Positions 53,760 to 54,492 of a stretch of 64,000 nucleotides of DNA are shown piece after piece. Position 1 is the first letter of the stretch, and every line of letters starts with the position of its first letter. Both the position numbers and the translations under genes were made by a program. The notes under the pieces were generated by a model that did not search any database, was not told where the DNA came from, and saw only the letters and a program-made list of their open reading frames with translations. The DNA is from Eledone cirrhosa (lineage: Eukaryota), in assembly GCA_964016885.1 (NCBI GenBank), contig OZ024743.1, forward strand, positions 110,422,001-110,486,000, given 5' to 3'.

Positions 53760-54492
53760 ATGTAAACCTTTATATGTAATAATCTCCCGTTAGGTTGAGA
53801 TACAAATTTGGCTGTAGTGTGCTGCGCTTTCTAGCAAAAAGCCACCAGCCGTAAGCAACTAACAACATTCTTTCTAACCTGACCGCTGCTACGTCACGCT
53901 TCTTAGCCATTTTTGAATGTATTCTTGGCGCGATCACTTTCGAAAATGTATTGTCTAAATTTGAGCTAACTTCCTGAAGAGTCCGGTGCTCAAGGTTCCG
54001 AAGCTATCGGATATCTTAAAATGCGGACGAAACCATGGTCGAGGTAAATAAATGTTCTCTCTTTTCTCCTAGTTTATTTTAGACCTAATTCTGTTTAATT
54101 GACTGTATATCTGGGCGATTACGCTGTCGAAATATTCGATAAATATTCCGTCGCAGCCGGCGCGAAGGGCTGGTTTCGGTTATCTGTTGGAGATTTCTTC
54201 ATAGAAGCCTTATTCTTATAGCTTGGTCTATTCGATTTTTTATATGGTTAATTATGCTAATTGGGAGAGGAAATGGTATATATTTTATCTGGTGATTCTA
54301 TAGACATGTTTTCTGATATATAGCTGTGATTATTTAATTTATTAACTTTTCATTGAGCGACAAAGTGACCCGTTGCAAAACACGTATATATATATATATA
54401 TATATATATAGGTAAACCTTTATATATATATATATATATATATATATATATATATATATATATATATATATATATATATAGGTAAACCTTTA
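53760..54492 (+). mobile_element. R1 complete monomer followed by restarts of the unit
   Basis: Begins GTAAACCTTTA at 53762; the same word recurs at 54412 and 54482 after (TA)n; no ORF. Confidence 0.85.
53969..54045 (+). ncRNA. Type I hammerhead ribozyme with intact core (R1)
   Basis: ACUUC-CUGAAGA-GUCCG...CGGAC-GAAA-CCAUGG-UC|GAGGU; predicted cut after 54040. Confidence 0.9.

Follow-up and report, generated by a model that had tools for sequence, protein, structure and literature searches.

R1, a repeat found at four places in the 64,000-nt stretch of Eledone cirrhosa DNA analysed here (the window), is in our judgement probably a non-autonomous Penelope-like element (PLE), that is, a non-LTR retrozyme. 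It would be copied in trans by a Hydra-like PLE, with a hammerhead ribozyme that cleaves part of its RNA and with mostly linear multimers as templates. The class of element was already known, and what is new in R1 is an excess of copies that begin at the predicted hammerhead cut site. R1 was placed among the non-autonomous PLEs on the basis of its PLE 'tail' anatomy, which it has in common with a young Hydra-like PLE in the same window. The features of R1 and of the candidate partner type are listed in Table 1.

Table 1. Positions of R1 features and of Hydra-like PLE copies in the window.
Feature	Position	Strand	Details
R1 subfamily A monomer, with internal (TA)n at 54385-54410	53762..54411	+	650 nt
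Block common to all four R1 subfamilies	53790..53915	+	From subfamily alignment; putative promoter-like role
Type I hammerhead; stem I ACUUC/GAGGU, stem II GUCCG/CGGAC with ~40-nt hairpin insert, stem III A-CCAUGG-U (palindromic)	53969..54045	+	Predicted cut after 54040
Short fixed 3' end, unit position 561; putative first RT start site	54305..54322	+	From end mapping
R1 'tail' separating the two fixed ends, ~100 nt	54323..54422	+	Long end is GTAAACCTTTA at 54412-54422, flush with (TA)n
Repeat copy of the last 11-12 nt of the unit, inside (TA)n	54481..54492	+	
R1 subfamily B copy, one unit with a 22-nt partial tandem; its 3' end, at ~33335, is the short one	33335..34037	-	Hammerhead core 33707-33701, GAAA mutated, cut position 33636
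R1 subfamily C copy, arm 5'-truncated; long 3' end at 21250	21250..21932	-	Hammerhead U3-G8 core 21763-21757, cut position 21687
Inverted arm of C copy; its end in (TA)n is the short one	21933..22437	+	
R1 subfamily D copy (young), partial tandem through the junction	1..490	-	Hammerhead core 152-146, cut between 75 and 74 (GUA)
Inverted arm of D copy, interrupted inside the hammerhead insert	489..832	+	
Small 3' fragment of a B-type R1 copy, in (TA)n	58006..58062	-	
Autonomous Hydra-like PLE with two-end anatomy; candidate partner type	37080..40940	+	ORF frame 37877-39931
Hydra-like PLE, second copy; long end 15367, short end 15445	15367..19288	-	ORF frame 16527-18590

The R1 units were 650-700 nt long with a GC content of 34-37%. 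They had no fixed terminal repeats, the apparent repeat length differing between copies. No open reading frame longer than 26-59 aa from Met was found on either strand of the circularised units of the four subfamilies, the longest in the A unit being 46 aa, in agreement with the original prediction that R1 is non-coding. R1 does not match the plant LTR retrozymes, which have a type III hammerhead in their LTRs and a 4-bp target duplication: its hammerhead is type I, no LTRs were seen and it ends in (TA)n. The block shared by all subfamilies carries words that we take to be CCAAT-, CRE/E-box-, RFX- and YY1-like. Contigs from two sequencing runs of one sample spanned the A unit, with loose TATA ends at 54322 and 54389, and are silent on expression.

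The four loci in the window represented four subfamilies (A-D) with pairwise identities of 62.6-87.6%. They had been described as one cyclic order of blocks entered at differing points. Their relatedness is real and their starts do differ, but the loci at 33335, 21250 and 1-488 lie on the minus strand and belong to B, C and D, respectively, and all 3' ends fall at two fixed sites, the long one for 53760 and 21250 and the short one for 33335 and 1-488. The 53760 copy was thought to start at and return to GTAAACCTTTA; the return was found at 54412 and again at 54482, after which (TA)n follows, but the first G of the unit is 53762 rather than 53760. The additional 11-12 nt at 54481-54492 would reflect either local slippage or re-priming. 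A 23-nt direct repeat said to bound 33335-34037 exists, although it is exact over 22 nt and is a short 5'-truncated partial tandem, which in sister copies ranges from none to a full additional unit. The D copy does read through the unit junction, as had been proposed, and extends 205 nt to the left of the window to the short end (locus L121). The inverted second arms of the 21250 and 1-488 copies were absent from the earlier description.

The hammerhead of the A copy had the intact core and GUC cut site that were originally predicted, with CUGAAGA at 53974-80, GAAA at 54029-32, stem II present and GUC preceding the cut at 54040. The Rfam model Hammerhead_1 (RF00163) matched 53968-54045 with 25.6 bits (E 0.00077), which is under the gathering score of 34, and an Rfam search of the window at gathering level returned nothing. 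Comparison across the subfamilies lends the predicted motif stronger support than the Rfam score. Stems I, II and III varied in sequence among subfamilies with the pairing kept, and the changes were compensatory in stem I (ACUUC/GAGGU, GUUUC/GAAAC, GUCUC/GAGAC) and in stem II (GUCCG/CGGAC, GUUCG/CGAAC, GUUCC/GGAAC). Cores of subfamily C were U3-G8, U3-A8 or C3-G8. Segments that satisfied a strict hammerhead descriptor numbered 32 of 42 in A, 24 of 30 in B, 12 of 34 in C and 12 of 18 in D; in the window, the B and C copies bear core or stem mutations and the A and D copies appear intact.

The A hammerhead alone folded no better than its shuffles (z -0.06), and its active fold was 1.9 kcal/mol over the minimum. 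Stem III pairing in A was predicted at -11.2 kcal/mol between two hammerheads, compared with 0 within one; a dimer arrangement has been described for metazoan type I hammerheads (PMC4209133). At least two complete hammerheads were present in tandem copies at a minority of loci (e.g. L009/L010, L018, L019/L023, L021, L038 and L156; 53760 is not among them). A hammerhead pattern search of metagenome contigs gave 0 matches.

Read in the RNA sense, the 3' ends of R1 lie at unit position 561 (short) or ~100 nt onward, 11 nt into the next unit (long), and both are flush with (TA)n. Among A, C and D loci, 144 of 158 outer ends were at one of these two sites, the long class taking in ends within the internal TA run: 69/76 in A (47 regions), 41/42 in D (30 loci) and 34/40 in C (24 loci, kept from 30 after six near-identical loci of one duplicated region were removed before counting). 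These loci were best hits, and so an unselected sample of subfamily B was taken as well, comprising 90 arms of any length, which were the first among 255 genome matches to a B 21-mer. The 3' ends of these 90 arms were short in 70, long in 8, elsewhere in 9 and at the fetch edge in 3, which gives 78 of 87 fixed. In 43 of the 46 classifiable inverted loci, the short and the long end were each represented once, on opposite arms. The 5' ends were scattered round the unit, many loci carried a partial upstream unit, many carried an inverted arm, and tandem arrays reached four units with the unit junction read through seamlessly.

The original prediction took the copies to be circularly permuted, a reading at odds with fixed ends. 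Alignment of the copies and plotting of their starts instead gave truncated 5' ends and fixed 3' ends, in all four window loci as well as in the genomic copies. Because the varied starts are 5' truncations against two fixed 3' ends, they are no evidence of a circle. R1 combines 5' truncation, a partial tandem, an inverted 5' arm and two 3' ends flanking an optional tail, as expected of a non-autonomous PLE. According to Craig et al. (2021, PMC8557442), PLEs are recognised by truncated 5' ends, partial tandems, an inverted copy at the 5' side and a tail that may be absent, and the Hydra clade carries hammerheads and has (TA)n as its target. For an anole PLE, Frangieh et al. (2024, PMC11167929) describe two internal start sites of reverse transcription in vitro that flank the tail.

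Judged by this anatomy, R1 is likely copied in trans by the reverse transcriptase-endonuclease of a (TA)n-targeting Hydra-like PLE. In 29 of 30 loci of the young Hydra-like PLE (counted by eye), the end fell in (TA)n at either of two sites separated by 87 nt. The class of this PLE is assigned from motifs read in the translation against Craig et al. (PMC8557442): a C-terminal GIY-YIG, DKT, CxCx5C, CxxC and CxH, with RWR for RWK; a Pfam search of the ORF gave no match. Many open 713-codon frames of this PLE were found elsewhere in the genome, and 1733 of 8000 scored proteins were relatives at E 1e-20. No similarity between R1 and the UTRs of two sampled Hydra-like families was found by blastn or nhmmer in 60 loci and 100 endonuclease-downstream regions, and the partner of R1 was consequently assigned from anatomy only. 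The comparison of pLTRs and 3' ends covers these two families, and a partner may lie among the other PLE families of the genome.

Several copies or fragments of the young Hydra-like PLE occupied 15367-21199 and 36213-40940 (unit ~3.27 kb, pLTR 680 nt). A conserved CAGAAGA...GAAA hairpin (15510 downward) lies some 60 nt ahead of the short end of this PLE; it resembles a hammerhead core with U4 changed and is non-canonical. A second, older Hydra-like family at 24500-26478 (minus strand) has a hammerhead-like motif in its 3' UTR, kept in most sampled copies; the core is U3-A8 (24651-24645), stem II has an insert of 70 nt, and the GUA site lies at 24558. Two apparent links between R1 and a PLE were rejected as nested insertions across a TA run.

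Breakpoints near the hammerhead seemed clustered, with 12 of 142 at -10 to +15 of the cut, and subfamily B was therefore tested. Among the unselected B arms, 8 of 90 started exactly at the cut (position 0), which was the commonest 5' end, against 0.94 expected per 3-nt window (P 5e-6, uncorrected). By batch, there were 5 in the first 30 arms and 3 in the next 60, a weaker replicate (P 0.024); the cut site had been picked from the data beforehand, and correcting the first 30 arms for all 687 positions gave P ~0.013. Of the other 5' ends near the cut, seven lay at -21 to -25 and one each at -3, -7 and -17. The group of seven, out of the 90 arms (L285-L374), is close to the base of the long hairpin within stem II, a possible RT stall site.

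A B pattern with four non-element bases just before the first post-cut base found 13 copies genome-wide, all true 5' ends on inspection; the same design at a control site ~50 nt upstream found 0 copies, this being a single position whose overall copy number was uncounted. Counted by eye, the 100 of 261 matches listed for a gapped B pattern covering -20 to +10 represent 22 distinct places: 7 at 0, 2 at +1, 13 at +3 to +10 and none clearly upstream. For A/D, 17 distinct loci were distinguished by eye among the 100 of 249 matches listed: 3 at 0, 2 at +1, 1 at +3, 7 at a TA-like anchor and 4 at -9 to -20. The A/D edge, with 5 of 17 loci at 0/+1, is weaker than that of B. Other 5' pile-ups in B (-383, -318, -427, -288 and -274) were TA-rich tracts or unchained short tandems and were discarded as microhomology or parsing effects.

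None of the 8 cut-site B arms had the element's own TA ahead of the junction, and TA microhomology thus fails to explain the pile-up. The simplest reading of these 5' ends is run-off of reverse transcriptase at the 5' end of self-cleaved RNA, and B copies that start at the cut suggest that part of the templates were probably linear RNA produced by self-cleavage. The same ends could arise if reverse transcriptase stalled at stem III, and the second cluster at -21 to -25 suggests that a stall does occur at the hairpin. However, the B peak is sharp to a single base, and A/D give the same sign even though their stem III has no hairpin fold in the monomer. Copies starting at the cut are ~300 nt long and lack both the hammerhead and the promoter-like block. 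We lean towards the view that the genome records germline hammerhead cleavage: the pile-up at the scissile bond would mean that the ribozyme is active in vivo and acts as a brake producing dead 300-nt copies, with uncleaved or re-ligated RNA carrying the lineage. No prior report of such a cut-site pile-up was found in the openly accessible literature. A point against cleavage comes from the Li, Clavereau and Pollet preprint (2026, bioRxiv 10.64898/2026.07.22.740005), according to which 8 of 9 Xenopus retrozyme dimers were uncleaved in vitro.

The cut is crossed intact by the remaining 82 of the 90 B arms, which means that the template was in most cases uncleaved or re-ligated. We favour linear multimers and keep circles as a live rival. 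In the classic retrozyme route, monomers excised by the hammerhead would be closed by a host ligase and the PLE reverse transcriptase would roll round the circle from two fixed sites, the cut-site copies being unligated monomers. We regard this as the main route only with considerable doubt. The intact arms, the seamless junctions, the arrays of up to four units and the lineage markers common to units within a locus all agree with it, but linear multimers predict this evidence equally. Cervera and de la Pena (2020, PMC7229834) demonstrated circular RNAs of retrozymes in coral, mussel and axolotl; on the other hand, the anole PLE uses unprocessed RNA in vitro (PMC11167929). Circular units of B and C folded better than shuffles (z -4.3 and -4.4), whereas circles of A and D were not unusually stable (z -0.6 and -1.4). 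Tandem pairs in A diverged by 3.8%, which is not below the 3.3% of the nearest other locus; with divergence no lower within than between loci, the unit-level variant test (two redundant B loci left out) singles out no template. One arm, L334, starts at the cut of an upstream unit and crosses the next intact (n=1, TA-ambiguous), as fits a partly cleaved linear multimer.

Two further origins were weighed. Random circular permutation, with reverse transcriptase entering and leaving a circle anywhere, would explain 5' ends spread round the whole unit; in its strict form it is contradicted by the fixed 3' ends, since two sites hold nearly all outer ends in A/C/D and nearly all unselected B arms, and we give it almost no credence. 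That R1 is a DNA-level satellite or a leftover pseudo-LTR of an autonomous PLE, made by truncated insertions or local duplication and without a life cycle of its own, is slightly less remote and still very improbable. A few tandem units are near-identical (0/618 differences in L009/L010 and 3/617 in L019), which implies later local duplication at these loci. Yet the unit is self-closing and repeats without an intervening ORF, none of the R1 arms inspected runs on into an ORF, copies are dispersed on many contigs, and the four subfamilies differ in age, with the best D matches 97-98% alike. Of the original proposal of a retrozyme copied from circular or multimeric RNA, the more-than-unit RNA and the retrozyme label stand, given the seamless junctions, the arrays and the conserved hammerhead; the argument from permutation falls with the fixed 3' ends.

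With partly cleaved linear multimers as the preferred templates, we propose the following cycle. An R1 locus of more than one unit would be transcribed into more-than-unit RNA, the conserved block ahead of the hammerhead being the probable promoter. A PLE protein would nick (TA)n DNA, and target-primed reverse transcription would start at either of two internal sites ~100 nt apart. If both target strands prime, one arm would form per start site, giving an inverted insertion. Copying would proceed toward the 5' end of the RNA and usually stop at random. The hammerhead likely cleaves some R1 RNA in vivo, and ~9% of the B arms that reach the cut end exactly there. The other arms would pass the cut intact on template that was uncleaved or re-ligated, for which mostly linear read-through multimers are favoured and circles are possible.

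R1 resembles the animal non-LTR retrozymes of Cervera and de la Pena (PMC7229834) and Li et al. (2026) in being non-coding and low in GC, in having one type I hammerhead per unit, in ranging from monomers to short tandems and in co-occurring with PLEs. The likeness is drawn from sequence, with an indirect genomic sign of cleavage. In the view of Li et al. (2026), animal retrozymes derive from PLEs and are non-autonomous, and their units measure 51-972 bp, a range that includes R1; the RNAs of 170-400 nt tested by Cervera and de la Pena (PMC7229834) are shorter. Unlike the animal non-LTR retrozymes in these accounts, R1 carries a 40-50-nt hairpin insert in stem II and occurs mostly as 1-2 units with inversions rather than in long arrays. 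No pLTR homologue of R1 was found in the two families sampled, whereas Li et al. (2026) report PLE matches for part of the Xenopus families.

Measured against the Hydra clade PLEs of Craig et al. (2021, PMC8557442), R1 has the same (TA)n target, partial tandems, inverted 5'-truncated arm, optional tail and hammerhead in the unit. It differs in encoding no protein and in having a tail of ~100 nt, against 30-40 bp in that account; the tail of the autonomous PLE family in the window is 87 nt. The Chlamys elements of the same paper, such as MRC1, are likewise non-coding, PLE-type and head-to-tail in microsatellites, and they form pLTRs. As described there, canonical hammerheads are absent from most of them, their targets are (C)n or (CA)n, and at the 3' end they resemble their partners; R1 has no such resemblance to the two sampled families. 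Poseidon_Ac of the green anole (Frangieh et al. 2024, PMC11167929) shares with R1 two genomic 3' ends flanking a tail, AT-rich targets and a hammerhead distant from the start sites. Its start sites are AC-rich and non-homologous to the target, while those of R1 end in target-matching TATA-like words. The same study reports that hammerhead cleavage was dispensable in vitro and that no RNA reads ended at the hammerhead site. R1 differs here too, its copies being piled up at the cut.

In the 3.0-Gb genome, first-look candidates numbered 3104 for A, 4477 for B, 3524 for C and 2259 for D, which overlap and are not copy numbers. An evenly spaced sample of 60 x 10 kb contained 2 R1 insertions (512 bases), or ~3 per Mb, a number that does not suffice for statistics on ends. 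This suggests about ten thousand insertions genome-wide, with a wide error, and local enrichment in the window, which has four insertions in 64 kb as against two in the 600-kb sample. Its (TA)n-rich stretches are nested landing sites for several PLE-type families. One such family, at 54521-54736 and 53604-53660, is short and likewise targets TA; inverted arms, two fixed ends and a tail of 82 nt are present, and its longer copies (L002, L026) have a hammerhead-like motif. This family had 37 anchor matches in the fetched loci, overlaps counted, and is probably a second PLE-mobilised family. Further hammerhead-bearing families are represented by a small canonical type I motif near 63626 (minus strand), a palindromic CTGATGA fragment at 34060-34143 and a degenerate core at ~33143-33170. 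The window also contains a dispersed ~187-nt repeat, partly tandem or inverted (4664-4761, 8924-9220, 10347-10474, 42829-42900, 57065-57264 and 60136-60516). Broken Helitron-like helicase pieces (Pfam Helitron_like_N) and duplicated LINE-like reverse transcriptase fragments (RVT_1) occur at 43188-47262 and 11020-14551, and an identical 172-nt duplication (63361-63532 and 63829-64000) lies at the right edge.

In the preprint of Li et al. (2026), the link between retrozymes and PLEs is drawn from co-occurrence and pLTR trees, and R1 adds insertion anatomy to it. Craig et al. (2021, PMC8557442) called the role of the hammerhead in PLEs unclear; an excess of 5' ends confined to one base, the cut, amounts to evidence of the in-vivo type, and any genome with such elements can be read for it. 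If our reading is true, the two fixed priming sites of R1 would tie animal retrozymes mechanistically to the internal initiation of PLEs, and R1 and its PLE would form a matched substrate and intact enzyme family in which circle and multimer templates could be tested against each other.
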